NCBI GenBank assembly: GCA_965207885.1
Contig: OZ242311.1
Span: 3,040,001 to 3,104,000 of the forward strand
DNA from: Candidatus Latescibacterota bacterium
GTDB lineage: Bacteria > Latescibacterota > UBA2968
Direction: 5' to 3'
DNA length: 64,000 nucleotides
Numbering within the stretch: the stretch's first letter is position 1; each line of letters begins with the position of its first letter. Shown here one piece after another: positions 2,993-64,000 of this stretch. The notes under the pieces are model-generated. The model was not told where the DNA came from. It made no database searches and saw nothing but the letters and a program-made list of their open reading frames with translations. The position numbers were made by a program, and so were the translations under genes.

Positions 2993-5900
2993 TTAGTAGA
3001 GTACCTCAAAGCGCGATCCCAGGTCGGGATATTTGGTGACTTCGATGCGCACGGGAAATGCCTGTTTGAGCGATTCGACGTGGGTAATAATCAATATTTT
3101 TTCAAAATCCCCGCTGATAGCCTGGATGGCTTCCACGAGGTGATCGAGTCCTTCGGCATCCTGAGTGCCAAAGCCCTCGTCGATAACCAGGGTCCTCAGG
3201 CGCGTGCCCGTGCGCCGAGATAGGAGTTTAGACAGGGCTATGCGAATAGAGAAGTCAATGCGAAAAGCTTCCCCGCCCGAATAGAGTTCGTAGCTGCGTT
3301 CGCCGAGTTCGTCGCTAATTTTAATGTCGAGGGTTTCGCGCGTTCCCCCGGTTTTGAGGTCGCGCAGAGATTCCAGGGCGATTTGGGTGCGGTTGTCCGT
3401 CAGGCGCGCGAGAATGCGATTGGCTTCTTCTTCGATTTCTGGAATGGCCTGTTCGATGATGAGTGCCTGAATGCCGTCTTTGCCAAATGCGGTGGTCAGT
3501 TCGCGGTAGATGCGGATGTCGCGTTCGCAGGATTTGATTTTCTCCTCGACGGCGTTTTGTTCTGCGCTGAGTGCATCGCAGTGTTCAATTTGGGATTGCA
3601 GGGCGGCATTCTGCTGGAGCAGGTTGTCGCGCTGGGCGCGCATCTGTGCAATAGTTTTTTCCAGAGTATTGGCTTCTTCAAGGGTTGATTCGGCGCTGTT
3701 GATGGCTGCGGTGATTTCCGTCAGGCGTTGTCGCGCTTGCCCGTCGCGCTCTGTGAGTTCTGTGAGGCGTTTTTTTGCGGTGTTAAATTGCGTTTGCGCA
3801 TTTTCAAGGTCGCGTTCGGCCACTTGAAGGCGTTCGTATTGCGTTGGCGCATCTTGCAGGGCGGCGAGTTGCTGAGAGATGCGCTGGTGGTGTTCGGCAT
3901 TGTAATCCAGAGTGCGGATGCGCTGGTGTACCTGTTCGCGTTCTGCTTGTTCATTGGGTGCGTATTTGGCCTCGTCCAGCCATTGTTGTGCGAGGTCGCG
4001 TTTTTCTCGAAATGCGGGCAATTCCGCGAGGACTTTTTCACGCTGTTCTGAGGCGAGTTGAAGTTGGGCATTTTGTGCCTCGACAGAGTCGAGTGCTTTG
4101 AGTTTTTCGCGCAGGGTGCGGTGTTCTGCCGGGTTATAGGTGAGGTTTTCAAGCGCACTGTGGGCCTGGGATAGCGCGCGCGCATCCGGGCTGTTCTGGG
4201 TTTGTTCACGCAATTGAGTTTCCAGGTCACTGATTTTAGCCGACAATGTTTCGCTGATTTGCACGGCCTTTTCGGCTTCTTTTAGTGCGGCTTCGGCTTC
4301 GGCGAGGTGTTGGGCGGTGTCTTCGCTCTGTGCGAGTTGGTTTTTAATTTTTTGATAGCGATGTCTGTGCTGTTCGCGTTCTGCTTCGGCTTTTTGAATA
4401 TCCGACTCCAATTGTGTGATCTGCGTCTGTTGTTCTCTCATCTGATTTGAGAGTTTTGTCGCTACTTCTTCGCGGTGGGCCTTGTCGAGTTCGCTGCCAC
4501 ATAAAGGACAGGAGGCATCCTGGACATTTTGCAAAATTTGCTGTTGTTGAGCAATGTCTTCGCGGGCTTGTCGCAGAGTGTTGAGGCGTTCGCTGTTATT
4601 TTCAATCTGAATTTTATAGGCACTACCTTTGTTGCGAATCTCATCGCGTTTGGCTTCGAGAGATTGAATTTCTTCGGCTTGTACGCGGAGGGATCGCCGC
4701 GTTTCTCGCCGCGTTTCAATGTCGGCCACCAGTACATCGGTTTGTTGTCTGTGATGTGTGTGGGTGCTGATCTCTATTTTTATATTTTCAATAGCACTGT
4801 CTATTTGTCGCTCGATGTCTCGAATATTGCGCTCAACGCGCTCCCGGTTTTCGCGTATCTCTTCCCATTCGCGATCCTGTTGTCTGGCTTTGTGCAATGC
4901 CTCGAGTTGTGTTTGAATGGTCTCGCGATCGGAGAGAAGTGCTTCTGTTTCTCGCAATGTGCGTTCTGCATCGCCAATGCGTATTTGCCATTCGCCGAGG
5001 CGGCGTTCCACTTCGTGACGCCGGTCGGCGATTTTTTGATCGAGTTCTCCTGCGCGTTTCTCAAGTGGTCTCAATGTGTGTAGTTTTGTTTGCAGGTCTG
5101 CGTCTTCTTTTTGAAGTGCCCGATATTTTTCGGCGGCATTTGTGATTTCGGCGCGTCTGTCGAGGATTTCGCGATAGGTTGCCACGTCTTGTTGCGCTTT
5201 TTCACACGCGGTTTGTTGTTCTTGCATGTCCGATTCAATGCGCGATATTTCTTTTTGAAGTGCCTCGCGCTCGGCTTCACGGCGTTCGCGTTGGGTGCGT
5301 ATTTTTCGCAGTTCTTCGCGGCGATTTTCCGCGCTTTCCAATTCGCTATTGCAGGCCTGGAGTTGTGCGTTGACGCCGTCGCGCTGTACTACAAATTCAT
5401 CGCGTTTTTCAATGGTCTGCACGATGTCATCTCTTTTTGCGCGAGCGGTTGCGAGTTCTATATCTCCCTCGTGTGCGCGTTCTCGCGCCAGGGAAGACAG
5501 GTCGTCGTAATGCGATAGGCCGAGAATATCTGAGAGAAGGGCTTTTCGCTGGCTCGCTTTGCAACGCGTAAATTCGTCTGCGCGCCCCTGAAGAAGAAAA
5601 GCCGAGTTAATAAAGGTCTCATAAGTCATTCGCAACAGGGTGTCAATACTGGCCTGTGTTTGGCGCACAGCACTTTCTTCCGAGAGGGTTTTGTATGCGT
5701 TCGTTTCCGGCGAGTAAATCTGAAATTCGAGGCGGGTGGTCGCGCTTTTGCCGGTTTTGCGAAAGCTGCGGCTGATGCGATAGCGATCATTTTCGAGGAA
5801 AAATTCAAAATCAACCCGCATTTCAGTGGCGCCAATTCGCAGCAGGCCGTCGTTGGGACGGCGTTCACTGCCAGATTTGCGGGCCTCTCCCCACAGTGCC

Positions 5901-6043
5901 CAGGTGATGGCATCGAGCAGAGCAGATTTGCCGTGCCCATTGCGACCGCTTATGCAGGCGACGTGAAAGCCCGAAAAATCGAGGGGGGGCACGTTTTCGC
6001 CGTAGCTGAGAAAGTTCTGCAGGGAAAGGCTTATGGGAATCAT
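2993..6043 (-). CDS. sbcC: SbcC/Rad50-family SMC-like ATPase
   Basis: Walker A GRNGHGKS, long coiled coil with CPLCG zinc hook, signature YSGGE, Walker B LVIDE; downstream of sbcD. Confidence 0.93.
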   Translation of the reverse strand: MIPISLSLQNFLSYGENVPPLDFSGFHVACISGRNGHGKSALLDAITWALWGEARKSGSERRPNDGLLRIGATEMRVDFEFFLENDRYRISRSFRKTGKSATTRLEFQIYSPETNAYKTLSEESAVRQTQASIDTLLRMTYETFINSAFLLQGRADEFTRCKASQRKALLSDILGLSHYDDLSSLARERAHEGDIELATARAKRDDIVQTIEKRDEFVVQRDGVNAQLQACNSELESAENRREELRKIRTQRERREAEREALQKEISRIESDMQEQQTACEKAQQDVATYREILDRRAEITNAAEKYRALQKEDADLQTKLHTLRPLEKRAGELDQKIADRRHEVERRLGEWQIRIGDAERTLRETEALLSDRETIQTQLEALHKARQQDREWEEIRENRERVERNIRDIERQIDSAIENIKIEISTHTHHRQQTDVLVADIETRRETRRSLRVQAEEIQSLEAKRDEIRNKGSAYKIQIENNSERLNTLRQAREDIAQQQQILQNVQDASCPLCGSELDKAHREEVATKLSNQMREQQTQITQLESDIQKAEAEREQHRHRYQKIKNQLAQSEDTAQHLAEAEAALKEAEKAVQISETLSAKISDLETQLREQTQNSPDARALSQAHSALENLTYNPAEHRTLREKLKALDSVEAQNAQLQLASEQREKVLAELPAFREKRDLAQQWLDEAKYAPNEQAEREQVHQRIRTLDYNAEHHQRISQQLAALQDAPTQYERLQVAERDLENAQTQFNTAKKRLTELTERDGQARQRLTEITAAINSAESTLEEANTLEKTIAQMRAQRDNLLQQNAALQSQIEHCDALSAEQNAVEEKIKSCERDIRIYRELTTAFGKDGIQALIIEQAIPEIEEEANRILARLTDNRTQIALESLRDLKTGGTRETLDIKISDELGERSYELYSGGEAFRIDFSIRIALSKLLSRRTGTRLRTLVIDEGFGTQDAEGLDHLVEAIQAISGDFEKILIITHVESLKQAFPVRIEVTKYPDLGSRFEVLY

Positions 6044-7281
6044 TCGCCACCTCTGAGTTCTGCTTCGAGTTGCGCGCCGTAATTCTGGAGGTCTTTTTCG
6101 ATGTCTTTGAGATCGGGGTGATTTTGCAAATATGCGTGGAGCGCGTCTTTTATGCCCATATCTTCTGAGATATTGGCTCTGCGTTGGTGTTTTTGTGCCC
6201 TGGGTTTGGGCGCAATGCTGGCGACCATGAACGCGTCTTTGAGCGCGTTTTTGATGGCTTTGAGGTCAACGGTATCTGTGCGGTCGCCGGGCAAATCGTA
6301 GATAACGCGCACAATGGCATCGGTCAGGGTGTGTTTGCCGATGGCTTCGAGTATGGCTGTCGTAGGGTCCTGGTCTGGGGCGATATCAACCGATACCGTG
6401 CAAAAGGGACGGGCTGGCGTACTTACAAATTTGTAAGATGTCGTCCTCTCAGTCTCCTGAGTCTCTATTGTGACCAGGACGACGCCTTTGGTTTCCCGTT
6501 CTTCGCCAAAATCAATGCGTTCAATGCTGCCGGAATATACGACAGGGGGCTGGGCATTGAGATTGAGATCCTGAAATTTGTGGATATGCCCCAGAGCGAC
6601 GTAGTCAAAGGCGGGGTTGGCAAGTGTGCTGGTGAGAAAAACGGGATCGCGCCCAATTATTGCGGTTTGTTCAGAGCCGGACAAGGTGGCGTCGGCAGCA
6701 GCGAGGTGGCCCACGAGCACGGCGGGGATATCGGGCTTGATCTGGGTGACCAGGTTTTCAATCAGGAGGGCACCCAGATCTTGAAGTTTTTCGACGACTT
6801 CTTCTTGCGACAGGTTGTGATAGGGCCCCTGGGTCAACAGGCGGCTGCGGTGTAGCCAGGGCAAGCAGGCAATTTGAATGGGTCCTGATTTTGTGTCAAT
6901 GTCGATGAGGCGGTCTTCAGAGGCAATGTGGACACCTCTGGTGCCCAGTGTGCCAAAGATATCAACAGATGAGGCTTTGCCATAAGATACGGGGCTGTCG
7001 TGATTGCCGGTGATCATGACGATGGGAATGTCGCGGGCACTGAGCATGTGAATGAGAGATGCAAATTCGCGCTGGTGGGTGGGCGTGGGGTCGCATGAGC
7101 GGTAGGCATCACCGGAAAAGATGACGAGATCGACATCTTCTTTTATAGCTTCTTCAAACGAGAATCGCAGACTTTTGATAAAGTCTTGCAAGCGCGTGTG
7201 AAGGCCAGTAGCCGAATCGAGGCGGCCGTAATTTTCAACGCCAACATGGGTGTCGGCAACGTGTAGAAATTTGATGGACAT
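6040..7281 (-). CDS. sbcD: SbcD/Mre11-family nuclease
   Basis: Metallophosphoesterase motifs ADTHVG, SGD, GNHD, ALGHIH; overlaps the sbcC start by 4 nt. Confidence 0.93.
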   Translation of the reverse strand: MSIKFLHVADTHVGVENYGRLDSATGLHTRLQDFIKSLRFSFEEAIKEDVDLVIFSGDAYRSCDPTPTHQREFASLIHMLSARDIPIVMITGNHDSPVSYGKASSVDIFGTLGTRGVHIASEDRLIDIDTKSGPIQIACLPWLHRSRLLTQGPYHNLSQEEVVEKLQDLGALLIENLVTQIKPDIPAVLVGHLAAADATLSGSEQTAIIGRDPVFLTSTLANPAFDYVALGHIHKFQDLNLNAQPPVVYSGSIERIDFGEERETKGVVLVTIETQETERTTSYKFVSTPARPFCTVSVDIAPDQDPTTAILEAIGKHTLTDAIVRVIYDLPGDRTDTVDLKAIKNALKDAFMVASIAPKPRAQKHQRRANISEDMGIKDALHAYLQNHPDLKDIEKDLQNYGAQLEAELRGGE

Positions 7282-7374
7282 AGCAAGAGAGGTCGTTATG
7301 GGGAGGGAGAGGATAGGGGAAATTTAAAGAAGAAATAAGAACGTGGAAAGAGCAAAGTTGCACACAGCACAGGT

Positions 7375-9192
7375 TTATGGGCTTACCTCTGGCGAGAGTT
7401 TTACTTTAATCTGCAGTTTTGTGACATCTGTGAAGTGGATCGCCAGTTTTCTGCGGCCCTTGTTATCGGCTTGTTTGGGATTGGGGGAGGTGGGCAAGGG
7501 GGTTGCGTTGAGGACTGTGAATATGGCGTCGGATGGCGATAAAATTTCCGCTTTGAGATGTTTGCCCCTGCGCGTTAGAAGGGCGGTTTGTCCGTCGAGT
7601 TTGACACTGGCTCTCGTGTGCATGAACCACCAGAGTTCAGATGGGGATTTGGCTTCAATGTCGTCGGTAATCACGACATGATTTTGGTCTATTATCTCAA
7701 AGGTGCGCTGCGCACGCGTTGCATCATCGGCATAAACATCGGTGAGGTCGAGGACAGCTGTCGCATGACTGGGATCAGCCTTGAAGGCGGTGATGGGACA
7801 TTCGGCTTTTGGGTTCTGATCTGGACCATTGCCAGGGTTGAAGACGAGGGTGTTGTGGCCTTCGGCGCGGATGCGGTAGAATTCCCACCGTTGGCGTTTG
7901 TTGCGATGTCTCTGATAGGTTTCGCGTTCCGTGCCCGAGTCGATAGCCCACCGCTCGCCGAGTGCTTCGAGGATGAATGTGCCCTGATCCAGGTGCCGGT
8001 GCATGCCCAGATTGTAATTGCCGCCTGCCTGAATGCCCAGCACGAGGGCGTGGGGGTCTGTCCAGGAAGAACGCAGGGTGGCGACATCGGCTTTGCGAAA
8101 GTGTTTGTCGAGGGGCAGGGTGCTGGGGTCAAAGTCTTTTGCGCTGTCGTCGAACCACAGCAAGTCGAGCACTGTGCCCCTGCCGTATTGCCTGAGCGTG
8201 TCGTAGCGAAACCAACTGTAGTGTTGTATGCCGTAGTGCGTGCCCATCCAGAAGTGCATGGGGGTACTCATGCGCCGCAACCCGCAATCGGCAAAGTCAA
8301 AACTGTAGCGATCTGCCCCCGAGATATAAATCTGATAATTCCCGCTCTCTTTGAAACCGGGTATAGCTGCGAGATCAAAATCGGTGCCGAGAGCACTGAA
8401 CAGGCTGGATAAGAAGAGCACGTTGTAACGCGCACCATAATCCCAATAGGTCACGCCTTCGATACCAGCGCCATCGGGGGCGTAAAAATTCATCGATAGG
8501 GGAATGCCTTTGATGCCCGCGTGGAGAATTTCACTGGCGAGTTCGGGTTCTTCATCGGCGATGGCGAGCGCGCCCATGCCAAGCCCGCCGTTGCAGACCT
8601 GGTTCCAGTTGTTGTGACTGCGCGCCCACCAGGCGTTTTCGCGATAGCCTTTTAAGCCGGGTTTGAGACCTTTTTCCACGATGGCACTGCGAAGGATGTG
8701 ACGCTGTTCTTCTGTCCAATGGTCGTATAACCAGTCGTATCCAACGGCAAAGGCATAGGTCATTTCTGCGGTGTCGAGAAAGTGATCGGGATTCCAGTCT
8801 TTGAATCGCGCCGCGGATTCGAGTTCTGCCCAGGCGCGTTCTAAATAGGGTTTTCCGCCTTCCATGAGATAGACAAAGGCGAGTTGACGCACGCGCTCTT
8901 TCACGCGACGGCTGGTGGAGAGCAGGCGTCTTCCATCCGGGATGCTGTATTCCGATGGTTTTTGCGTGAGTATTTTCTGAGTTTCTCGTTTGACCCGACG
9001 GTAGATTTTGGCGGCGATCGTATCACGAGCGATTTGCTCTTTGATGCGCGCGAGGGTGTTTGCATCCATCATCAGACGCGGGTGGCCGGGTTTCAGGGTC
9101 GTTAGAATCCGATCCTTATCCGGGGGAGTGAATGCTTCAGTATGTGTTTGGATACTCAGCATGAGGATGATTATTGTCGCGATTGATTTCAT
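7375..9192 (-). CDS. Secreted heparinase II/III-family polysaccharide lyase-like protein
   Basis: Signal peptide, HPRL near the N terminus, HFLDTAEM, NNWNQVCNGG, EGxxYWDYG, HxHLDQGTF, GHNTL. Confidence 0.82.
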   Translation of the reverse strand: MKSIATIIILMLSIQTHTEAFTPPDKDRILTTLKPGHPRLMMDANTLARIKEQIARDTIAAKIYRRVKRETQKILTQKPSEYSIPDGRRLLSTSRRVKERVRQLAFVYLMEGGKPYLERAWAELESAARFKDWNPDHFLDTAEMTYAFAVGYDWLYDHWTEEQRHILRSAIVEKGLKPGLKGYRENAWWARSHNNWNQVCNGGLGMGALAIADEEPELASEILHAGIKGIPLSMNFYAPDGAGIEGVTYWDYGARYNVLFLSSLFSALGTDFDLAAIPGFKESGNYQIYISGADRYSFDFADCGLRRMSTPMHFWMGTHYGIQHYSWFRYDTLRQYGRGTVLDLLWFDDSAKDFDPSTLPLDKHFRKADVATLRSSWTDPHALVLGIQAGGNYNLGMHRHLDQGTFILEALGERWAIDSGTERETYQRHRNKRQRWEFYRIRAEGHNTLVFNPGNGPDQNPKAECPITAFKADPSHATAVLDLTDVYADDATRAQRTFEIIDQNHVVITDDIEAKSPSELWWFMHTRASVKLDGQTALLTRRGKHLKAEILSPSDAIFTVLNATPLPTSPNPKQADNKGRRKLAIHFTDVTKLQIKVKLSPEVSP

Positions 9193-53564: not shown

Positions 53565-54860
53565 ATGCCAGATATCATCAGGATAAACGACGTAAGTGCA
53601 TGGGAAGATAAAGAAGTTGTGATCGCGGGATGGCTGTACAACAAACGGTCAAGTGGAAAATTGCACTTTCTTCAGATCAGAGATGGCGCTGGTACGATTC
53701 AGTGCGTGGTGTTTCAGGGCGATGTATCGCCAGACGTTTTTGAAAAGGCATCAGACCTGGGGCAAGAGTCGGCCCTTCGCGTGACGGGGGTGGTTCGGGC
53801 CGATGCGCGTTCGCCCATTGGCTTTGAAATTGGCGTCAGCGATATCGAAATTGTGCATCGCGCAGAGGATTATCCGATTACGCCCAAAGAACACGGCACG
53901 GCATTTCTGATGGATCATCGCCATTTGTGGCTGCGCTCATCGCGTCAACATGCCATTTTAAGCGTGCGTGCTGAAATTGTCAAAGCCTGTCGCGATTATT
54001 ACGACAATAATGGCTTCACACTTGTTGACGCGCCTATTTTTACACCGTCGTCCTGCGAAGGTACCAGCACGCTTTTTGAAACCGATTATTTCGATGAGAA
54101 AGCATATCTGACACAGAGTGGTCAGCTATATATGGAAGCTGCAGCTATGGCGTTTGGAAAGGTGTACTGTTTTGGACCGACCTTTCGAGCTGAGAAATCC
54201 AAGACGCGGCGTCATTTGACCGAATTCTGGATGGTCGAGCCAGAGGTGGCCTATATGGACCTATCGGGTAATATGGATCTGGCGGAAGACTTTATTTGTT
54301 GTGTTGTTCAGCGCGTGGTAGAAACCTGTCGGTCTGAACTTGTGACTTTGCAACGCGATCTTGCGCCCCTACAGCGGGTGAAAAAACCATTTCCCAGGAT
54401 ATCTTATTCGGATGCACATGAGTTGCTAAAAGATGCGGGTCGCAATCACACCTGGGGGGAGGATTTTGGTGCTGAGGATGAAACCGTGTTGGCCAATGCA
54501 CACGATCGCCCCGTGATTGTGCATCGATATCCGGCAGCTTGCAAAGCTTTTTATATGAAGGGGGATCCGAAAGATTCCCAACTGGCATTGTGTATGGATG
54601 TGTTGGCTCCCGAAGGATATGGAGAAATCGTCGGTGGGGGGCAGCGCGAGGACGATCTGGAGGTCTTGCGGCGGAAGCTCGCCGAACACGGTCTTGACGA
54701 GGCGCCGTTCCAGTGGTACCTGGACCTCAGGCACTATGGATCGGTGCCACATTCCGGTTTTGGATTGGGTATTGAGCGTACAGTCGCGTGGATATGCGGA
54801 TTATCCCATGTCCGCGAGACGATTCCATTTCCTCGGCTTTTGCAAAGATTATATCCTTAG
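53565..54860 (+). CDS. asnS: Asparagine--tRNA ligase
   Basis: OB-fold start, [40 protein letters not shown]. Confidence 0.95.
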
Positions 54861-54873
54861 GAGTTGTATTTCA

Positions 54874-57312
54874 ATGGCTTACGAGTTTGCTGAAATTGAA
54901 AAAAAATGGCGTCAACGCTGGGAAGATACTGGTCTGTACCGCAGTGAAATCGATTCCTGCCGCCCCAAGCACTATGCTTTGACCATGTTGCCTTATACTT
55001 CGGGCGACCTCCACATTGGTCACTGGTATGCGATTGCTCCCTCTGATGTTCGGGCGCGATATATGCGAATGAAGGGACACAATGTACTGTTTCCCATTGG
55101 TTTTGATGCTTTTGGATTGCCCGCTGAAAACGCCGCAATCCAACGGGGTATTCACCCGGCCAAATGGACTCTGGACAATGTGGAACGCATGCGCGAACAA
55201 CTGAAAACAATGGGTGCGATGTTTGACTGGACGCGCGAAGCGATCACCTGTTTGCCCGAATATTACAGATGGACGCAGTGGTTATTCCTCAAATTTTACG
55301 CCAATGGTCTGGCTTATCGAGAGAAAGCCCCCGTTGATTGGTGCCCACAGTGCAATACGACCCTGGCTCGAGAGCAAGTTTGGGGGGAGGATCGGCACTG
55401 CGAACGGTGTGACACACCCGTAATTAAAAAGGACCTGGACCAATGGCTATTTCGGATTACCCGATATGCTGAGGAGTTACTCGATTTTTCAGAAATTGTA
55501 TGGCCTGACCGCGTGCAGACCATGCAGGAGAATTGGATTGGAAGGAGTGAGGGCGTTGAATTTGAAATGCGCGTCAAAAATTCAGAGTCATCGTTTCGCG
55601 CGTTCACAACGCGCCCAGATACCATTTTTGGCATGTCTTTTGCGGTTTTAGCCCCCGAACATCCACTGGTCGATGAGATAACCGCACCCGAGCAACGGGA
55701 AGTTGTTAAAGCATATTGTACAAAAGCCAGCCGTCAGTCGGAGATCGAGCGTCTTTCTGCGGATAAAGAACAGGATGGGGTTTTCACTGGTGCTTATGCA
55801 ATTAATCCCATGAACAATGCCGATGTACCCATTTACATCGCCGACTATGTGTTGCTCCAATATGGTACAGGAGCCATTATGGCTGTGCCCGCACACGATG
55901 AACGCGATTTCGATTTTGCCAAAAAGTATGGGTTGTCCATTCCCGTTGTGATTGCCCCGGATGATTGGGACGGTGGAGCACTCACCGAGCCATATACCGA
56001 TGCGGGACGTATGGTAAATTCGGGACAATTCGATGGTTTGTCCTCGCAAGATGGAAAAGATGCCGTGGCCGATGACCTCGAATCCCGAGGCATTGGCGAG
56101 CAAAAAGTCAATTATCGCCTTCACGATTGGCTGATTTCTCGTCAGCGTTATTGGGGGTGTCCGATACCGATTATTTACTGTGATACATGTGGCATTATTC
56201 CCGTGCCAGAACATGATTTACCTGTAATGCTACCCGATGATGCAGAATTTCTGCCCACGGGTGAATCTCCTCTAAAATATCACGAAGGTTTTCTACACAC
56301 GACCTGTCCAAAATGTGGTGCTTCAGCGCAGCGCGAGACGGATACTATGGACACGTTTATGTGTTCTTCGTGGTATCAATATCGATATTTAAGCCCACAT
56401 TATGATGCGGGGCCTTTTGAACCTCATGAAGGTGAATACTGGTTGCCTGTTGATCAATATACAGGGGGTATAGAACACGCGACCATGCATCTGCTCTACA
56501 CGCGTTTTTTCACCAAAGCCATGCGCGATATGGACCTCGTCAGTGATGATGAACCGATGACGCGCTTGTTTAATCAGGGCATTATTCTGGGTGAAGATCG
56601 AGAAAGAATGAGCAAGTCGAGGGGTAATGTTGTCAATCCCGATGATTTGATTGTGCAGTATGGAACAGATTGCATTCGGGCTTATGTGATGTTTCTGGGG
56701 CGGTGGGAACAGGGAGGTCCCTGGAATTCATCGAGCCTGGAAGGCATTCCGAGATTCTTAAACCGGGTGTGGCGTCTCGTTGTTGAAAATGGCACTCCGG
56801 CAAAGGGCGACCCCACGCAAGAATCCCAGGATAATTTGCGGCGTTTAACACATCAGACCATCCGCAAGGTGTCTGAAGATTTTGAAACCTTTGGGTTTAA
56901 TACAGCACTTGCTGCGCTCATGACGTTTAGCAATGGTTTGTCGGCGGCTCAAAATACGCCTGTTGTGCATACGGAAGCGTGGAAAGAAGCCATTGAAACG
57001 CTTGTCTTGATCCTGGCGCCTATAACGCCGCATCTCTCCGAAGAGCTTTGGTCGCACATTGGGGGAGAGTACAGCGTTCATCAACAGAATTGGCCCGAAT
57101 GGGACGAAAATCTCGCTCGACCAGCAACGATTGAGATGCCGGTTCAGGTCAATGGCAAAGTCCGTGCGCGCATGGAAGTTGAGGTTGATGCAGGGCCGGA
57201 AGAGATTGAAAGTATAGCTCTGGAACAGCCGAATGTACAAGTGCATGTCCAGGATCAAACGCCCAAAAAGATAATCGTCATTCCCAATCGGCTGGTCAAT
57301 ATTGTGGTGTAA
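54874..57312 (+). CDS. leuS: Leucine--tRNA ligase
   Basis: PYTSGDLHIGH, FTTRPDT, DWLISRQRYWG, RMSKS, VQVNGKVR. Confidence 0.97.
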   Translation: MAYEFAEIEKKWRQRWEDTGLYRSEIDSCRPKHYALTMLPYTSGDLHIGHWYAIAPSDVRARYMRMKGHNVLFPIGFDAFGLPAENAAIQRGIHPAKWTLDNVERMREQLKTMGAMFDWTREAITCLPEYYRWTQWLFLKFYANGLAYREKAPVDWCPQCNTTLAREQVWGEDRHCERCDTPVIKKDLDQWLFRITRYAEELLDFSEIVWPDRVQTMQENWIGRSEGVEFEMRVKNSESSFRAFTTRPDTIFGMSFAVLAPEHPLVDEITAPEQREVVKAYCTKASRQSEIERLSADKEQDGVFTGAYAINPMNNADVPIYIADYVLLQYGTGAIMAVPAHDERDFDFAKKYGLSIPVVIAPDDWDGGALTEPYTDAGRMVNSGQFDGLSSQDGKDAVADDLESRGIGEQKVNYRLHDWLISRQRYWGCPIPIIYCDTCGIIPVPEHDLPVMLPDDAEFLPTGESPLKYHEGFLHTTCPKCGASAQRETDTMDTFMCSSWYQYRYLSPHYDAGPFEPHEGEYWLPVDQYTGGIEHATMHLLYTRFFTKAMRDMDLVSDDEPMTRLFNQGIILGEDRERMSKSRGNVVNPDDLIVQYGTDCIRAYVMFLGRWEQGGPWNSSSLEGIPRFLNRVWRLVVENGTPAKGDPTQESQDNLRRLTHQTIRKVSEDFETFGFNTALAALMTFSNGLSAAQNTPVVHTEAWKEAIETLVLILAPITPHLSEELWSHIGGEYSVHQQNWPEWDENLARPATIEMPVQVNGKVRARMEVEVDAGPEEIESIALEQPNVQVHVQDQTPKKIIVIPNRLVNIVV

Positions 57313-57390: not shown

Positions 57391-58482
57391 TTATCGCTTG
57401 AAAAATGGTCGGGGAACAATCCGCGCTTTGAGGGTGTGGTTTCGGATTGCAATGGCGAGTTCTGTTCCAATTTCTGAATGGTTGGGCGGGACATAACCCA
57501 TTGCGATATTTTTTTTCAGATAAGGCGCGGCTGTACCACTGGTGACTTTGCCAATTGCATTTCCCGAATGATCCAGGATTTCGTAACCGTGGCGGGGGAT
57601 GCCGCGGTCGATCATTTCAAGCATGACAAGTGTTTTTGTGAGGCCATCAGCGCGCTGTTGCTCAAGGGCGTCAGAACCAGAGAATCCGCCCGCCTGTGAG
57701 ACGAACCGATCCAGCCCGGCTTCTAATGGTGTTGTTGCTTCGTCGAGTTCCTGTCCGTAGAGGGGGAGAGAGGCTTCGACGCGGAGTGTATCCCGCGCGC
57801 CCAATCCTGCAGGTGATACATCGGGTGATGCGATGAGGGCATTCCAGATTGCCGCTGCATCTTCTGTTCGCGTAAATATCTCAAAACCATTCATTCCTTC
57901 GCCAGTATATCCCGTGCGGGCAATGTGAACGGGTATTCCCACAAGTTCTACTTTGCGAATGCGAAAAAAACCGATTTCAGAGAGGTTCCGATTTGCGATA
58001 GGGGAGAGTACAGCCTCCGCTTTTGGTCCTTGAAGCGCGAGAAGGGCAAATTTTTCACTGCGATTGGCTACTTGAACATTATCAAAGGATTTTGCGACTG
58101 CCTGGACATGTTTCCAGTCTTTATCGATATTTGCGGCATTTACGACGATCAGATATGTCGTTTTGCCGAGGCGGTAAACGATAATGTCGTCAATTGCGCC
58201 GCCATTTTTGTTGAGAAATAGAGAATACTGTCCGCGCCCAATGCCGATGCGGTCTATGTCATTGGCAGTTAGAAATTGGACCAGTTTTTTGGCTCCTTTA
58301 CCTTTAAATTCAAATTCTCCCATGTGCGAGACATCAAAAAGTCCGGCTTTTGATCGCACCGCTTGATGTTCCGCGACGATCCCCTCGTATTGTACCGGCA
58401 TTTCCCATCCGCCAAATGGAACCATTCGGGCGTTAATTTTGTGATGTATTTCGTTTAGTGGGGTTTTTTTAAAGTTTTCCAA
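57391..58482 (-). CDS. gcvT: Glycine cleavage system aminomethyltransferase T
   Basis: F.GWEMPVQY, GLFDVSHMGE, RTGYTGE, GLGARDTLR.EA. Confidence 0.96.
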   Translation of the reverse strand: MENFKKTPLNEIHHKINARMVPFGGWEMPVQYEGIVAEHQAVRSKAGLFDVSHMGEFEFKGKGAKKLVQFLTANDIDRIGIGRGQYSLFLNKNGGAIDDIIVYRLGKTTYLIVVNAANIDKDWKHVQAVAKSFDNVQVANRSEKFALLALQGPKAEAVLSPIANRNLSEIGFFRIRKVELVGIPVHIARTGYTGEGMNGFEIFTRTEDAAAIWNALIASPDVSPAGLGARDTLRVEASLPLYGQELDEATTPLEAGLDRFVSQAGGFSGSDALEQQRADGLTKTLVMLEMIDRGIPRHGYEILDHSGNAIGKVTSGTAAPYLKKNIAMGYVPPNHSEIGTELAIAIRNHTLKARIVPRPFFKR

Positions 58483-58742
58483 CTATTTTCTCCTCTTTTT
58501 GTTTTAAATTTCAGTTTTCTCTCTCCCGGTCCTTTCAGGTCCTTGTTTTTTAAATTTGTTCCACTCCTGTTTTTATCGTCAGTTTTGATCCTATTTTTTC
58601 GTTTTTCCCCGTGTTTTTTGAAATATCCAGTTTTTTTTAGTTTCAGAACATTTATTTTTTAAAAATCCGTGTTAAAATGCGTCTTTCTTAAAAAAATAAC
58701 AAAAATTCGCTATTTGTGCGCTATTTTTCGTTATTTCACCCC

Positions 58743-58840
58743 TTGACAATATGGAAAAATAATACTAATTTAATGGAAAATTATTGTAAATAAATTGGAA
58801 TTTAAAAAGGGAGGAAAGAGATGGAAAATTATGGAATTAC
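58743..58840 (+). promoter_or_regulatory. Sigma70 promoter with WTGGAA direct repeats
   Basis: TTGACA-17-TAATTT. Repeats ATGGAAAAAT (58751), ATGGAAAATT (58773) and TTGGAATTTA (58795) are 22 bp apart, with ATGGAAAATT (58821) and ATGGAATTAC (58831) over the start codon. Confidence 0.6.
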
Positions 58841-59423
58841 TGAGGCTGCAAAAATTCTTAAAGTTACTGATAAAACAATAAGAAATTACATAAATAGAGG
58901 TTTTTTAAAGCCCGAAAAATGGAATGGAACCTGGCGTATATCCAGAGGTGAAATTGAGGAATTATTTAAGAAAAAATTTGGAAAAAAAATGATAGAAAAC
59001 CAGATTAACTTGAGCCATAATCTGGATCAAATTCTCGTCGAAAAATCCGAATTTGAAGCTCAACAACAGCAATTGGGAAAATTGGCAGCGATCGAAACAG
59101 TTGAAAGGGAACTGAGAGCGGAAATTCGCAATATAAATGAACGCAATGCACAATTAGAGGCTTCATCAGCCTCTGGATGGACGGAAGCACGGGCGTTGAA
59201 AGAAGAACTGGAAAAAACACGAGAAGAGCTGAATATGGCGGAAGAAAGGGGAAAAAAAGCAGAACAAGACGCAAATTGGCTGCGCAGACAACAAAAAGAA
59301 GTGGAAATAACCGCTCAGAAAAGCGCTGAAACGATTCAAAAACTCCGCGAAGAGAATCAACGGCTGTCAGATCTGTTATATCAACGGGCTCTTGGACTTG
59401 GGCGCGCGGATGTGAGAGATTAG
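58821..59423 (+). CDS. N-terminal HTH (excisionase/MerR-like) plus long coiled-coil protein
   Basis: YGITEAAKILKVTDKTIRNYINRG.L.......WRI wHTH; about 120 aa of heptad-rich E/K/Q/R coiled coil; strong RBS GGGAGG. Confidence 0.82.
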   Translation: MENYGITEAAKILKVTDKTIRNYINRGFLKPEKWNGTWRISRGEIEELFKKKFGKKMIENQINLSHNLDQILVEKSEFEAQQQQLGKLAAIETVERELRAEIRNINERNAQLEASSASGWTEARALKEELEKTREELNMAEERGKKAEQDANWLRRQQKEVEITAQKSAETIQKLREENQRLSDLLYQRALGLGRADVRD

Positions 59424-59520
59424 CACCACAAACACCAGTAAAATGAAATAATAGGTATTACATCAAGCCTTGATATAAGGATGGGTATTATACAGCAGTT
59501 TTAGGCTGATTTTGGTAGTA

Positions 59521-59633: not shown

Positions 59634-59680
59634 AAACAAAATCCCTGAGAAGCGTTTTTCTGCTCCCCAGGGATTTGTTT
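59634..59680 (-). terminator. Terminator of the TPR gene
   Basis: AAACAAAATCCCTG / CAGGGATTTGTTT inverted repeat. Confidence 0.6.
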
Positions 59681-59716: not shown

Positions 59717-60379
59717 CTAATCTATCTCAATACCCATCATGTTCAATTGCCCGCGTGCAAATCTCGTGACAGACGACTCATTGTATTCTTTGACGATCTT
59801 TTGATACGCCTCACTCGCTTGCTGGGGCATTTTGCCGAGTTCGTAACATCTGCCGGCTTCCTTCAGGGCTATCGGTGCAAAAGGCGATCCGGGTTGCGCT
59901 TCGGCAAAAGCTGTGAACTGTTGACCTGCTTCGGCGAATTCTCCTTCGCTTTCAAGACAGGACGCCAAACCCGACCAGGCACCATACCCCAATGGTCCAT
60001 CTACTGGGTATTCATCCAGATATTGCTGAAAATATGTGCGGGCCTCTGGAATGCGACCTTCTTCATAATGCAAATTGGCCAGAGCCATCAGTGCTTCGCC
60101 CGCTTCGGCTTCGCCTGCGTAGGTTTCCATTACTTCTTGAGATGAGGCAATCGCATCTTCTACGCGCCCTTCATAAAGTGCGATATAAACGTCTCCGAGA
60201 GCTATGCGAGCCGCGTCTGCGCGTTGTGTTTGTCCGCGATAAAAAAACAGGACAATCAACGCGGCGACAATGGCAATGCCAAATCCCGTGAGGATTCTGA
60301 TATAATTTGCTTCAATCTGGCCCCAGACCCTGAGAAACCAGACCAGTATGTCTTCTTGTTGCGGCTGTGGTTGCTGCAT
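59717..60379 (-). CDS. Membrane-anchored tetratricopeptide repeat protein (YfgM-like)
   Basis: Single N-terminal TM helix followed by TPR-like helices (ALMALANLHYEEG, ALKEAGRCYE). Confidence 0.8.
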   Translation of the reverse strand: MQQPQPQQEDILVWFLRVWGQIEANYIRILTGFGIAIVAALIVLFFYRGQTQRADAARIALGDVYIALYEGRVEDAIASSQEVMETYAGEAEAGEALMALANLHYEEGRIPEARTYFQQYLDEYPVDGPLGYGAWSGLASCLESEGEFAEAGQQFTAFAEAQPGSPFAPIALKEAGRCYELGKMPQQASEAYQKIVKEYNESSVTRFARGQLNMMGIEID

Positions 60380-60468
60380 AGAGGTTCTCCTCCCCTACCC
60401 TGTTATGAGATATTAAAGTGATAAGGTGAACAAGGTATATAAATCGCGCAATTTGGGCAAGAGAAAGA

Positions 60469-60497
60469 AAAAAACCGTTCTATAAGAGCGGTTTTTT
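60469..60497 (-). terminator. Terminator after the ABC permease gene
   Basis: AAAAAACCGTTCT / AGAGCGGTTTTTT. Confidence 0.7.
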
Positions 60498-60504
60498 GGA
60501 GTAA

Positions 60505-61239
60505 TCACAGTAGTTTTTCGCGCTCTATCATTCGTCTCAGAGCCAGAAAAATAAACAATATGCCCAGAATCGCAATGCCCGCACGGTTTAAGACCACGCG
60601 ATTTATCCACAGGCTGGTATCTAAATCTGAAGGCGGATCAAATGGCTTGAGAAAAAGGTAATACGATGTCTCTTCAAATATCTCCGTAGAAAGCAAAATC
60701 GCAATCAAAAGTCCCACGGCGAGCATGCCAGCCGCATTGCCACTGCGGAACAAAACAGAAAACAAAAATGTGGCTCCCACCATAAAGAAGGCGGGGATAC
60801 ATGCATTCAATCCGCCTAGAAGGTAGGGGAATTCCGCAAAAAAATAGTAGGAAATCGTGCTCATTGCCATCAGCGTGATAAATAGTGCAGCACTGATCGA
60901 CACAATTCTCACGGCCCACGTCGCGTAGTGGCTGACCGCCGTGCTGAAAAGAATTTCAAGCGTATCATTATCCCGCTCCCCCGACACCAGATCCATCGTC
61001 AGGTAAATCGCAAGCACCGTGCCCGGTACTTCAACCAATACATGGAGGGCTTGTTCGACTGAAAGCCCTTCACCCGGACGCCAGATTGCAATCGCGTACA
61101 AAATTGCGTAATACGCGACAATCCCGCCAAACATAAAAATCATTTTGCGGTGAAACACGATTCTCATGCTCAGGCTGTGCAATTTGCCTACGAAAAAGAG
61201 CAACTCACGCCATGTTAGACTGTTTGTATTCATCGCCAT
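60505..61239 (-). CDS. ABC-2-type transporter permease
   Basis: About six TM helices; ERDNDTLEILFST (ABC-2 E...TLE.L motif); overlaps the end of the RND-ABC gene; start approximate. Confidence 0.75.
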   Translation of the reverse strand: MAMNTNSLTWRELLFFVGKLHSLSMRIVFHRKMIFMFGGIVAYYAILYAIAIWRPGEGLSVEQALHVLVEVPGTVLAIYLTMDLVSGERDNDTLEILFSTAVSHYATWAVRIVSISAALFITLMAMSTISYYFFAEFPYLLGGLNACIPAFFMVGATFLFSVLFRSGNAAGMLAVGLLIAILLSTEIFEETSYYLFLKPFDPPSDLDTSLWINRVVLNRAGIAILGILFIFLALRRMIEREKLL

Positions 61240-64000
61240 GTCGCAAAAGATAAAGGTACGCATCTTCGAGGGTGGGCGCAACAGCACGCGCTTCTGGGAT
61301 GGGATCAGTAGCGAGGAATCGCACCCGAATCCCGTCGGGCACGCGCACATGTGTAATCATATCCAGGTCGCGTTCCAGCGCTTCAAAACGCGGATCTGGC
61401 AGCAGAGCCTCCCACACCTTATCGCGCGCCAAATCGCGCATCTCAATCGGGGTTCCCGTATAAAGCAACTTGCCGTGATTCAGCACGGCCAATCGGTTGC
61501 AACTACCCGAAATATCTTCGACAATATGCGTAGAAAAAATAATGATTTTTTCCTGGCTAAATCGCGCCAGCAGATTTCTGAACCGGATACGCTCGAGTGG
61601 GTCCAATCCCGCTGTCGGCTCATCCACCACAATAATCTGCGGCAAGTGCAACAGGGTTTGTGCAATGCCCACGCGCTGTTTCATACCGCCGGAGAACGAC
61701 CCAATCAGATCGTCTCGCCTATCCCACAGATTGACCTGCTCCAGACATTCCTGAACGCGCTTGCGTCGTGCTACCCCATCCTTAAATCCCTCTAAAAGCG
61801 CGCGATACTCCAGATAATTATACGCAGACATGTGCAGGTACAGGCCAAAGTGCTGCGGCAAATATCCAATGACCCCCTGCATATTCCGATGTGTAAGTGG
61901 TATTTTACCATTTGCGAGTACCGACCCGTAATTTGACGACAAAACCCGACACACAATCCGCATCAGCGTGGTCTTGCCCGCGCCATTGGGCCCCAAAAGC
62001 CCAAACATCCCGCGCGGAATATCGAGACTCACACCGCCGAGAGCCTGGAATTGCGGGCGCGGAACACCAATCAGGGGTATGGCTGCAGCGCCGCGGTACA
62101 CGATGCCCTTAACAGGACCTAATTTGCCCGGTATATGCTCGGGATCAACGCGACCATTTGCTACGCGATTTGCCAAAAATCCGATGATGCGATAGAGCAA
62201 GTAGATTGCAGAAGTGGCGATGGTCAAAGATATAAGTTCCAAACGCCAATGGATAAAGGCGATAAAGACCAGCGGCAAAATCAATCGGACGATTTGTGAT
62301 ATCCATCTGTTCTCAATCTGAAAATCGCGCAAAGCCGCCGCGCATAGCACGAGGTGATGTATGAGGCCCCATATAGCAAGCCCCGCCAAAAATATCCAGG
62401 CTCCCTGTTCAAAATAGGTTTCCAAGTAAATCAAAAGTGCCAGAAGTGGTAACTTCCACCACAAACTGTCCCTGATCGCCTTTTTATCTACCAATACCTG
62501 CCCGCGCTCTAAAAGGCGCTGATGACGCCGCTTAAAGCGATCCCATTCATGCTTAAATCGCCCCGGCGCACCGTAAATTTTTGTCAGATTGCGAATTTCG
62601 AGATGCTCAATATTGCCGATCTCAGCAAGAGAAGCCATACGCGCGCGATAAATGCGTTGCACTATCCAGATCACACCCATACACAACATCCACGCTGGCA
62701 ATGCCAAAAGATAGGTCCAGAACAAACTCTGGTAATAATCGTCAACCCAATACGTCAATCCCGCGGCTGCTGTTGTTCCCAATACGATCCCGAACCAGCC
62801 AATATCCGTAAGCCAGGCTTTGGTCTGGTCAATTCCCATGTACACCACGGGAATAAATACGAGGGTGGAAACTGTTGAAACCGCCAGCCCTCCGATTACC
62901 ACAATCGCAAAGGGTGGCCAAATTTCGTAATCGCCGCCAAATATGAGTGCCAGAGGCAACATGCCCAAAATGGTGGTTGCCGAAGTCATTAATACAGGAC
63001 GCACGCGCGACCGGCTCGCCGTGAGCACCGCGCGTTCTCGCCTGAACCCACGGCGGCGAAGGGTTTCAATCGCATCAATCAGCACGATCCCATTGTTGAC
63101 GGCAATACCGCTCAAAACAATAAGCCCCAACAGTGCCATTGGCGCTTCTTGTGAGGTCAATCCCGTCCCCGATAAGATCAGTGCCCAGCACGATCCAATA
63201 ATTGCTGCGGGCAACGTGCACAAAATAATCACAGGCGCAGAAAGCGATTCAAACAAAGAGGCCAAAATCATAAAAATCAATAGAGCGGCAATGCCCATCA
63301 TCCAGTAATAAATTGTCTCTTCCTCTGCCTCAATCATTTCGATACTATACCCTTCGGGCAGCACCATTTCAGAGACCACAGCTTGCACATAAGCGCGGGA
63401 GGCTTCCAGCAGAGGTTGAGACTGCAAAATTTCTTCGGCAAAGCGGTACGAGACAATCACGCGCCGCGATTGATCGGTGCGCAAAATCATGCTCCTGCCC
63501 TGATCCCGGCGCACATGCGAAACTTCTACAAGGGGGATATAAGTCCCCCCCGTACCCAGAATCGGCGTCTGTCTCAATCCCGCAATACCCTCCCCCTCTT
63601 CTTCCGGGTCTTCGACATTGCGAACATCAATCGGGATTTCAGTGCCTTCGGGTGTGAGAAATGAAATATTGGATCGCGCACCGCGCGGATTGGCGTCGGA
63701 TACGGCATTGAGCACCTGGCGCACCTGCAATCGCCGATCAAACATTATTTCTTCATCGGGCAAAACATGCACTTCAGATGCGCCGCGTTCTGCATCGGCT
63801 CTTACGCTATTCGGATCGATTTCCTCCAATTCTTCGAGGCGATAGACCAGATCGTCGGCAAGCATTTGAAGCACCGTAAAATCATAGCCGCGAATGACAG
63901 CCATTTCCGAAGGCGCGCCACCTTCCAGATTGAATCCGCCCGAGGCCTGACGGGTGCCCCGAATACCGCCTCCCCCGCCTCCCCCTCGGCCCCCACCACC
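61205..64000 (-). CDS. RND efflux permease (AcrB-type C-terminal half) fused to an ABC ATPase; 5' end lies beyond the window
   Basis: The frame is open from 64000 (GGGGRGGG...SEM). RND motifs ASLFES, GIAVNNGIVLID, RVRPVLMTS.TTILGMLPLA and IGGLAVST..TL.FIPVVY are followed by ABC motifs GPNGAGKT, FSGGMKQR, IIVVDEPTAGLDP, FSTH and PTLEDAYL. Confidence 0.9.
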   Translation of the reverse strand, partial: GGGGRGGGGGGGIRGTRQASGGFNLEGGAPSEMAVIRGYDFTVLQMLADDLVYRLEELEEIDPNSVRADAERGASEVHVLPDEEIMFDRRLQVRQVLNAVSDANPRGARSNISFLTPEGTEIPIDVRNVEDPEEEGEGIAGLRQTPILGTGGTYIPLVEVSHVRRDQGRSMILRTDQSRRVIVSYRFAEEILQSQPLLEASRAYVQAVVSEMVLPEGYSIEMIEAEEETIYYWMMGIAALLIFMILASLFESLSAPVIILCTLPAAIIGSCWALILSGTGLTSQEAPMALLGLIVLSGIAVNNGIVLIDAIETLRRRGFRRERAVLTASRSRVRPVLMTSATTILGMLPLALIFGGDYEIWPPFAIVVIGGLAVSTVSTLVFIPVVYMGIDQTKAWLTDIGWFGIVLGTTAAAGLTYWVDDYYQSLFWTYLLALPAWMLCMGVIWIVQRIYRARMASLAEIGNIEHLEIRNLTKIYGAPGRFKHEWDRFKRRHQRLLERGQVLVDKKAIRDSLWWKLPLLALLIYLETYFEQGAWIFLAGLAIWGLIHHLVLCAAALRDFQIENRWISQIVRLILPLVFIAFIHWRLELISLTIATSAIYLLYRIIGFLANRVANGRVDPEHIPGKLGPVKGIVYRGAAAIPLIGVPRPQFQALGGVSLDIPRGMFGLLGPNGAGKTTLMRIVCRVLSSNYGSVLANGKIPLTHRNMQGVIGYLPQHFGLYLHMSAYNYLEYRALLEGFKDGVARRKRVQECLEQVNLWDRRDDLIGSFSGGMKQRVGIAQTLLHLPQIIVVDEPTAGLDPLERIRFRNLLARFSQEKIIIFSTHIVEDISGSCNRLAVLNHGKLLYTGTPIEMRDLARDKVWEALLPDPRFEALERDLDMITHVRVPDGIRVRFLATDPIPEARAVAPTLEDAYLYLLRHGDEYKQSNMA

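Follow-up and report, generated by a model that had tools for sequence, protein, structure and literature searches.

Gene layout at the locus

The DNA analysed here, hereafter the window, is a stretch of 64,000 nucleotides (nt) from the 6.23-Mb single-contig genome of a Candidatus Latescibacterota bacterium (G000:C1:3040001-3104000). At its far end lies a gene in which a resistance-nodulation-division (RND) permease of the AcrB type and an ATP-binding cassette (ABC) ATPase are encoded in one reading frame, followed by an overlapping gene for a small six-helix permease; both genes are on the minus strand. The fused open reading frame (ORF) is open at the window edge and occupies 61205-64000, giving 931 codons with no stop before 64000. 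The whole gene was recovered from 18 kb fetched around the window end (L001, in which a coordinate plus 58000 equals the window coordinate), where it comprises 1575 codons at 3205-7932, equivalent to 61205-65932 in window numbering. The last 59% of the gene is inside the window, and the first 644 codons are beyond its end, up to the equivalent of 65932. The parts of the gene and the adjoining permease gene are arranged as follows, where TM denotes a transmembrane helix.

62828..64000, minus strand: in-window part of the RND (AcrB-type) permease, residues ~645-1035, with the second periplasmic loop and TM7-12
62603..62827, minus strand: two extra helices, TM13-14, residues ~1036-1110, from hydropathy and AlphaFold2 (AF2)
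62570..62602, minus strand: displaced first beta-strand of the ABC ATPase, residues 1111-1121, LEIRNLTKIYG
62066..62569, minus strand: insertion in the ATPase fold, ~168 residues (~1122-1289), an amphipathic helix followed by TM15-18
61208..62065, minus strand: ABC ATPase core and C-terminal regulatory-type domain, residues ~1290-1575
61205..61207, minus strand: stop codon of the fused gene
60505..61239, minus strand: small six-helix permease, 244 amino acids (aa) from the ATG at 61239, overlapping the end of the fused gene

The first-pass annotation of the window had described one frame joining an AcrB-type RND permease to a complete ABC ATPase, and this description was borne out by the full-length protein, in which both Pfam domains and all ATPase motifs are present. 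ACR_tran (PF00873) matched the whole 1575-aa product with an E-value of 1.6e-178 (596 bits against a cut-off of 28), with profile positions 4-1020 covered in two stretches, and matched the in-window part with an E-value of 4e-59 over profile positions 668-1020, the C-terminal third. ABC_tran (PF00005) was found at residues 1300-1441 of the whole protein (E 2.9e-25, 89.9 bits against a cut-off of 25) and in the in-window part at E 1.4e-25.

Residues 1-1035 follow the normal 12-TM layout of an RND permease. Two long polar loops lie between the hydropathy segments at 1-37, 329-544 and 872-1035, and the alignment of this part to MdtB spans TM1-6 and TM7-12. Beyond RND TM12, hydrophobic helices at ~1040-1094 bring the chain back to the cytoplasm, the amphipathic helix and four TM helices of the insertion follow at ~1125-1254, and the remainder of the ATPase extends from ~1290, with Walker A at 1314-1322. 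Since the six added TM helices come in even counts (2 + 4), the topology fits a cytoplasmic ATPase.

Occurrence and integrity of the fusion

A search with residues 1035-1575 returned 4798 matches at E ≤ 1e-3, and the best 120 of these all carry PF00873 together with PF00005; 110 of the same 120 are 1480-1700 aa long. More than 100 fused homologues were found in Latescibacterota, Bacteroidota, Gemmatimonadota, Calditrichota, KSB1, Acidobacteriota and Krumholzibacteria. When each species was scanned through one genome, fused genes were likewise obtained in Candidatus Latescibacterota (93% identity, evidently the window's lineage), in many Bacteroidota, and in Calditrichaceae, Gemmatimonadaceae and Krumholzibacteria. 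Cultured carriers among the Bacteroidota include Draconibacterium mangrovi, Marivirga tractuosa, Marivirga sericea, Prolixibacter bellariivorans, Maribellus maritimus, Parabacteroides massiliensis and Bacteroides sp. 224. The names borne by the fused homologues are automatic, such as 'efflux RND transporter permease subunit', 'ATP-binding cassette domain-containing protein' and, from JGI, 'AcrB/ABC-type multidrug transport system ATPase subunit'.

In a set of 31 related genomes that contains the window's own, one frame over residues 1-1575 or 2-1567 is present in 29, two of which (G005 and G002) have a single TAA inside the match; the two genomes that do not have the fused gene belong to one genus. 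In an even sample of the phylum, the gene was present in 65 of 121 genomes and in 34 of the 52 high-quality ones. The possibility, raised in the first-pass annotation, that the fusion is confined to this assembly and that homologues are always split was thus contradicted by the best 120 matches and by the 29 related genomes.

The junctions were also crossed by independent sponge-metagenome contigs. X6 (27.8 kb) spans 60403-63970 and X9 (6.3 kb) spans 61602-64000, and no indel was present in the genes of either. Sponge metatranscriptome contigs cover the linker between the RND and ATPase parts, the nucleotide-binding domain (NBD) and the junction of the fused-gene stop with the small-permease start; in X15 and X16, parts of the stretch have no RNA-contig cover. 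The metatranscriptome contigs are a weak hint of expression, and DNA can contaminate such libraries.

Shorter proteins matching the 260-aa linker were collected as possible split forms. There were 11 matches, of which six with an ACR_tran tail on short contigs are fragments. P0132, P0169 and P0151 were rejected as natural split forms, the first having out-of-frame-like sequence after residue 1180, the second starting inside RND TM11-12 and the third having a junk N-terminus. P0164 (526 aa, with no ACR_tran) is the sole candidate for a stand-alone form, and Atlas clusters of 551 and 480 aa, named 'ABC transporter ATP-binding protein', may be fragments or stand-alone forms. In one genome, G115, the gene is broken into two ORFs, 1129 aa and 423 aa long (L088, G115:C46:104300-109600), with a 23-nt overlap in the linker just past the displaced strand; G083 and G118, of the same genus, keep one frame. 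P0129 (439 aa) starts mid-linker at nearly the same point as the G115 break and was likewise rejected. The G115 split and the TAA codons of G005 and G002 may be frameshifts, pseudogenes or sequencing errors. The fusion is the rule, and the breaks (G115, P0129, P0132) are sporadic.

The history of the fusion was examined in a FastTree phylogeny over 987 columns, comprising 40 fused RND domains, 40 partner RND permeases encoded next to them and 14 RND paralogues of this genome. All 40 fused RND domains formed one clade and all 40 partner RNDs another, each with a support of 1.0, and the two clades were not sisters to the exclusion of nine other paralogues. The fused NBDs also formed one clade (25/25). 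In the NBD tree, the free ATPases of the same operons did not group into one clade with the rooting applied, and that tree gives no placement of them relative to the fused NBD. From the single clade of fused RND domains, and likewise of fused NBDs, it follows that the fusion arose once and was passed on along with its partner genes. It has been kept across at least seven phyla at 35-60% identity, and the compared sequences indicate a genuine, ancient fusion with a single origin.

ATPase fold and transmembrane insertion

The last 560 residues were modelled with AF2 from aligned sequences of 46 members of the family (mean pLDDT 79.6, pTM 0.60; model residue n is full-length residue n+1015). The order of elements in the model is a TM pair, the displaced strand, an amphipathic helix with four TM helices, and the remainder of the ATPase. 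TM13-14 are helices at model residues 2-52 and 55-87, the displaced strand is at 95-105, and the helices of the insertion are at 110-127, 135-156, 162-186, 194-216 and 219-243. Structural alignment with VIA-align to solved NBDs gave Z-scores of 24-27 with 210-260 residues aligned, and the insertion was aligned to none of them. Model residues 92-95 fall on residue 1-2 of the solved NBDs and ~550 falls on their C-termini; in the best example, 4yer_B, 261 residues were aligned (Z 26.8, root-mean-square deviation (rmsd) 3.4), with model residues 92..551 placed on chain residues 1..305. The displaced strand thus occupies its normal place in the modelled fold, and ~170 residues are an insertion. The closest ATPase folds are TM_1403 (4yer) and NosF (7o0y). 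Foldseek also aligned the C-terminal model over long stretches to ABCA4 and ABCA7, but these alignments, with an rmsd of about 20 Å, were distrusted.

The NBD of the fused protein is therefore not contiguous: ~168 residues lie between beta1 (1111-1121) and beta2 (~1295). These two strands are contiguous in 25 stand-alone ATPase relatives (40-48% identity, ORFs of 269-415 aa). We know of no described ABC ATPase with membrane helices between its first two strands.

Conservation was assessed in an alignment of 111 full-length sequences, the window's own and 110 homologues. Walker A (GPNGAGK), the Q-loop Q, the SGG signature, the Walker B D-E pair and the H-loop H are each invariant in 111/111, which indicates that the ATPase is under selection as an enzyme; judged by its motifs, the fused ABC ATPase is catalytically intact. 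In the displaced strand, K1118 is conserved in 111/111, L1116 in 110/111 and Y1120 in 109/111. Within the linker, W1040, E1129, W1130, R1135 and W1159 are invariant. When the 260-aa linker was compared by phmmer with 1.84 billion representatives, 48 matches were obtained at E ≤ 1e-3, essentially all of them fused proteins or their fragments, and in the full-length matches the linker sits at ~1020-1295.

The best NCBIfam models of the ATPase are GldA and DrrA. All scores are below the equivalog cut-offs (for GldA, 168 and 177 bits against 402.6), so the protein is neither GldA nor DrrA itself. RbbA was also among the NCBIfam matches of the fused and free ATPases (E 1.6e-36 and 9.3e-40).

RND domain and proton relay

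The best solved relative of the fused RND part is MdtB (9lyq_B, E 2.9e-72). The fused and partner RNDs are divergent members of their family by NCBIfam: with RND_permease_2 (NF033617), whose cut-off is 1250 bits, the fused protein scored 483 and the partner 622. MdtC and MdtB were among the best models of the fused RND, at 322 against 1774 and 277 against 1584 bits for their equivalog cut-offs.

A check of the proton relay, which the first-pass annotation had singled out, showed that the AcrB residues are partly replaced. In AcrB numbering the relay consists of D407/D408 in TM4, K940 in TM10 and R971/T978 in TM11, and N401 and N946 of the fused protein are taken here to be the D408 and K940 sites. 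Relative to MdtB, the fused RND has D-N for D-D in TM4 and N-N for K-N in TM10, with the TM11 Arg and Thr kept, so of the canonical AcrB relay the first Asp, the Arg and the Thr are kept only. This state is fixed in the family (D400, N401, N946 and T983 each in 111/111, R976 in 110/111), and a second count of the TM4 Asp gave 40/40.

Among the 14 stand-alone RND paralogues of this genome, 7 show this D-N/N-N pattern too, as do many partner RNDs. Being common to stand-alone paralogues, it is a subfamily trait and no mark of decay or of a switch to ATP. The loss of relay residues was accordingly rejected as evidence for an ATP-driven RND, and proton coupling of the fused RND is probably retained, by analogy with its stand-alone relatives.

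Gly/Arg-rich low-complexity runs (GRGGGGGGRGGGGGGG; GGRGGPGG repeats; a GRG-rich C-terminus) were observed in the fused protein (residues ~640-662, window ~63950-64000 and beyond) and in the large permease of the same operon (L001 12077-15586), in parts of both that are presumably periplasmic. A Gly-rich stretch is present at the same spot in the fused-family consensus. An unusually long RND paralogue was observed elsewhere in the genome, a 1358-aa ORF (G000:C1:1437208-1441284, plus strand) with ~300 extra residues, directly upstream of an outer-membrane efflux protein (OEP) gene at 1441557-1442801.

Small permease downstream of the fusion

The small permease gene stands directly 3' of the fused gene in 44/45 loci, and the 45th locus ends 215 nt past the gene. 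Its longest ORF is 60505-61350 (281 aa), which shares 146 nt with the fused gene. Homologue lengths are about 233-252 aa, or 233-308 aa (typically ~238 aa) when the longest ORF is counted; given these lengths, a start at the ATG at 61239 or 61233 is likely, with an overlap of ~29-35 nt. The overlap with an ABC-2-type permease gene that the first-pass annotation had described is thus present, and the ABC-2 assignment is probable by AF2 fold, with a Pfam match below threshold.

The AF2 model of the small permease has six long helices (pLDDT 87.8, pTM 0.85). The top rows of its Foldseek search are nearly all type-V membrane domains, including PmtCD, NosY, ABCG25, ABCA1, CcmB and ABCG2/5/8, with TM-scores of 0.5-0.64. 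On this model, the small permease probably has the ABC-2/type-V exporter fold. An NCBIfam search of the small permease gave no match. Complex predictions that paired the C-terminal part of the fused protein (541 aa) with the small permease (244 aa) scored 0.43, 0.44 and 0.41, against 0.28 for the sole unrelated control, and these values speak neither for binding nor against it.

Operon organization

Upstream of the fused gene, on the same strand, are in order a free ABC ATPase, a 1169-aa large permease, a membrane fusion protein (MFP) and a second RND permease (RND1, the partner RND). The free ATPase (a 321-aa ORF) is 45% identical to the fused ATPase, C-terminal domain included (E 8e-81). The MFP is of the RND type (TIGR01730, E 6e-56), and RND1 has 1021 aa. 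The genes for MFP, RND1, fusion and small permease overlap successively by 4, 4 and about 30 nt.

The large permease combines an ABC-2-like membrane domain with a weak Peptidase_M1 stretch and Golvesin_C (E 1e-17), and has about 900 periplasmic residues. It weakly matches GldF and ABC2_membrane_2, the GldF score being 21 bits against a cut-off of 288.5, and no sequence relative was found among the solved structures searched. The M1 motifs HExxH and GxMEN are absent from the window's protein and from 40/40 homologues, so the M1-like domain is no peptidase. Pfam gave neither FtsX nor MacB_PCD for any of the operon proteins.

Gene order was compared in 47 loci with a full-length fused gene, mostly from other phyla. 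The order ATPase-M1perm-OEP-MFP-RND1-FUSION-ABC2small was found in 36/47, and a further 10/47 end at a locus or contig edge and otherwise have the same order. The locus from the window's phylum (L008) lacks the OEP gene only, like the window's genome. RND1 is directly upstream of the fusion in all 47. Of the upstream partners that the first-pass annotation had suggested looking for, an MFP and a second RND are therefore present and a TolC-type gene is found in other phyla and not here; the flanks gave no clue to a cargo.

In two Bacteroidota loci (L018 608-1644 and L019 389-1446), a 118-aa GntR-type regulator of YtrA-like size and an unannotated 225-232-aa ORF stand directly before the free ATPase. 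The GntR-type protein may be the operon regulator in those species.

Proposed mechanism and alternative explanations

Known RND/MFP/TolC pumps capture substrates from the periplasm or the outer leaflet. The reading favoured here is that the fused protein is one subunit of a composite envelope-spanning exporter, in which an ABC-2 exporter is tethered to an MdtBC-like two-RND tripartite pump and the substrate is handed on to the RND duct. A probability of roughly 0.55 is assigned to this joint reading, the hand-off included. The fusion, MFP, RND1, small permease, free ATPase and large permease would be co-transcribed and translationally coupled partners. The ATP-driven ABC-2 module would take substrate up from the cytoplasm or the inner leaflet and deliver it on the periplasmic side, where the proton-driven RND/MFP/TolC module tethered alongside would capture it and expel it across the outer membrane. 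The fusion would fix the proximity and stoichiometry of the two engines. With two fused subunits per trimer an NBD homodimer could form; with one, the free paralogous ATPase could serve as its partner. The architecture, its conservation, the intact ATPase motifs, the relay pattern kept in the RND part and the conserved operon are observed, and we infer the substrate hand-off, the ATPase-permease pairing and the oligomeric state. The hybrid RND-ABC export machine proposed in the first-pass annotation is in this sense supported, and we infer that it may work as one exporter.

Several observations weigh against this two-stage reading. RND pumps are trimers and ABC transporters are dimers, which sets a 3-fold against a 2-fold symmetry. 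There is no TolC gene in the operon of this lineage, so that its outer-membrane partner would be one of the 7 OEP genes elsewhere in the genome; the canonical AcrB D408 and K940 are replaced by N and N, and the surroundings of the operon vary from locus to locus and offer no hint of a substrate. The assignment of the small permease also has weak points: ABC2_membrane_2 matched it at E 2e-3 and 17.7 bits, below the Pfam gathering cut-off of 27.2; 5/42 members of its family matched any ABC2_membrane model at E ≤ 0.01; the best Foldseek E-value of its model was 5e-3, with none ≤ 1e-3; and an hhalign comparison of its family with the membrane part of the large permease was marginal (probability 2.9%, E 0.015).

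A doubtful alternative is a mechanotransducer comparable to FtsEX, LolCDE or MacB, in which ATP hydrolysis moves the M1-like/Golvesin_C domain so that a substrate is extracted, presented or processed and then expelled by the RND/MFP/TolC duct. The substrate would then be periplasmic or in the outer leaflet, maybe peptide-like or glycan-bearing, and nothing would cross the inner membrane through the ABC part. The large periplasmic portion of the upstream permease, with its Peptidase_M1-like stretch and Golvesin_C, is what such a device would need, the absence of the M1 zinc motif from 40/40 homologues suggests binding over catalysis, and MFP and TolC are encoded in the operon. The permeases, however, are predicted to have the ABC-2/type-V fold and not the type-VII fold of FtsX and MacB, in agreement with the absence of FtsX and MacB_PCD matches, and type-V exporters normally translocate their substrates.

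A true dual-energised exporter, one continuous trans-envelope machine on which ATP hydrolysis and the proton gradient would both act, is similarly unlikely. Here, closure of the ATPase would be mechanically coupled to the RND cycle via the six extra TM helices and the strand-swapped insertion, and the heteromeric trimer would set the number of ATPases.

Rather less probable is an ATP-gated or ATP-driven RND, in which the ATPase would drive or gate the trimer cycle through the six TM helices and the small permease would be a membrane stator. The covalent link, the TM insertion that holds the ATPase tight to the membrane beside RND TM12, the invariant linker residues and the missing AcrB-type D408 and K940 would all suit such a device. 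The relay pattern is nevertheless shared by stand-alone paralogues with no ATPase and is no mark of lost coupling, a gene for an ABC-2-fold permease follows the fusion as for an ordinary ABC exporter, and the operon encodes a second ATPase and permease pair.

It is improbable that the two transporters were fused by chance loss of a stop codon and that the fusion persists neutrally, with no functional coupling. Fusions of operon neighbours are common, and the gene of G115 is split in the linker. The single ancient origin and the retention across phyla argue against this explanation, as does the linker, which is no simple read-through and contains six TM helices, conserved residues and a beta-strand swapped into the ATPase fold; convincing split forms are nearly absent, the 11 short matches being mostly fragments and G083 and G118 being intact. 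An assembly or annotation artefact (a frameshift or chimeric join) can practically be dismissed: the genome of this metagenome-type organism is one long contig, and indels can occur in long-read assemblies, but independent contigs cross the junctions with no indels and hundreds of independent assemblies from different phyla have the same frame of 1550-1620 aa.

Relation to known transport systems

RND pumps are proton-driven and ABC exporters are ATP-driven; they belong to separate superfamilies, and a tripartite pump is described as running on one or the other. MdtABC-TolC of E. coli is similar to the present system in that an MFP gene is followed by two tandem RND genes, which here too stand in one operon, and in that MdtB is the best solved match of the fused RND and a TolC-type gene is present in the operons of other phyla. 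Unlike the fused protein, the Mdt subunits have neither an ATPase nor additional TM helices, and the relay is D-D/K-N in MdtB and D-N/N-N here. MdtBC reportedly assembles with a B2C stoichiometry.

The ABC part resembles type-V exporters of the NosFY(D), PmtCD, DrrAB, NodIJ and GldAF types, since the ATPase fold is near TM_1403/NosF and the permease model is near PmtCD/NosY. In contrast to these exporters, the present system has its ATPase attached to the C-terminal side of an RND permease, and four TM helices separate the first two beta-strands of this ATPase. With MacAB-TolC the system shares an ABC ATPase, an MFP and a TolC-type channel encoded together, and the use of ATP for an envelope-spanning system. 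MacB, however, is of type VII (FtsX fold, four TM helices and a periplasmic domain) and is fused to its own ATPase, and MacAB has no RND permease. None of MdtABC-TolC, the type-V ABC-2 exporters and MacAB-TolC joins RND and ABC components in one chain.

ABC-2 permeases and ATPases in an operon with a periplasmic adaptor are also known from E. coli YbhGFSR and YhiI-RbbA-YhhJ. These have no RND permease, and the ATPase of RbbA is fused to an ABC-2 permease. Two-step efflux by AcrAB-TolC together with single-component inner-membrane transporters follows the same logic as the favoured reading, but the partners are separate, unlinked proteins.

The first-pass annotation had allowed that the architecture might already be characterised. 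The literature search returned no description of an RND-ABC fusion; subscription-only papers, TCDB entries and supplements were outside its scope, and a brief mention there is possible. Passages of a 2021 Chemical Reviews survey (PMC8277102) contain no mention of such a fusion. The system thus consists of known parts in an undescribed, apparently obligatory combination, with an unusual TM insertion in the ATPase fold.

An RND-ABC chimera with a fixed seven-gene operon across the FCB group and neighbouring phyla suggests a third design: either substrate would be channelled out of the cell obligatorily in two stages, starting in the cytoplasm, or the machine would be truly dual-energised. If dual energisation were true, a primary and a secondary active transporter would for the first time be seen joined in a natural chimera, and the protein would also be the first ABC ATPase with TM helices inside its catalytic fold. 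The presence of the operon in cultured, non-pathogenic Bacteroidota (Marivirga tractuosa, Prolixibacter bellariivorans) makes the idea open to direct experiment. The window's organism appears to live in sponges, where the system may matter among host and microbial metabolites.

Flanking genes and minor observations

The window neighbours of the operon are housekeeping genes, namely those for PNPase, two tRNA synthetases and GcvT. Two further features were located downstream of the small permease.

59717..60379, minus strand: TPR_21/YbgF-like TPR protein, 220 aa, 126 nt downstream of the small permease
59639..59676, minus strand: terminator-like hairpin, a 15-bp stem followed by a T-run, after the TPR gene

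The TPR protein matched Pfam TPR_16 (E 5.8e-17) and TPR_21 (E 1.5e-7). Its gene was matched in L008, of the same phylum, and unmatched in the 13 other loci examined; it may be the last gene of the operon and a lineage-specific addition. For the hairpin, one site was found against 2.4 expected in shuffled sequence, so that position alone speaks for a terminator.

A dip in GC content was observed at window 58000-59500 (0.36 against about 0.50 around it). Within it, a 200-aa ORF at 58821-59423 (plus strand), between the GcvT and TPR genes, has an HTH_17/MerR-type head and a long Glu/Lys-rich, coiled-coil-like tail, and may be a small foreign insert. In the tRNA synthetase region at 53565-57312, the longest ORF of the leucyl-tRNA synthetase (54598-57312) overlaps the preceding class-II tRNA synthetase by ~260 nt; its Pfam match starts at residue 104, and the true start is probably downstream.

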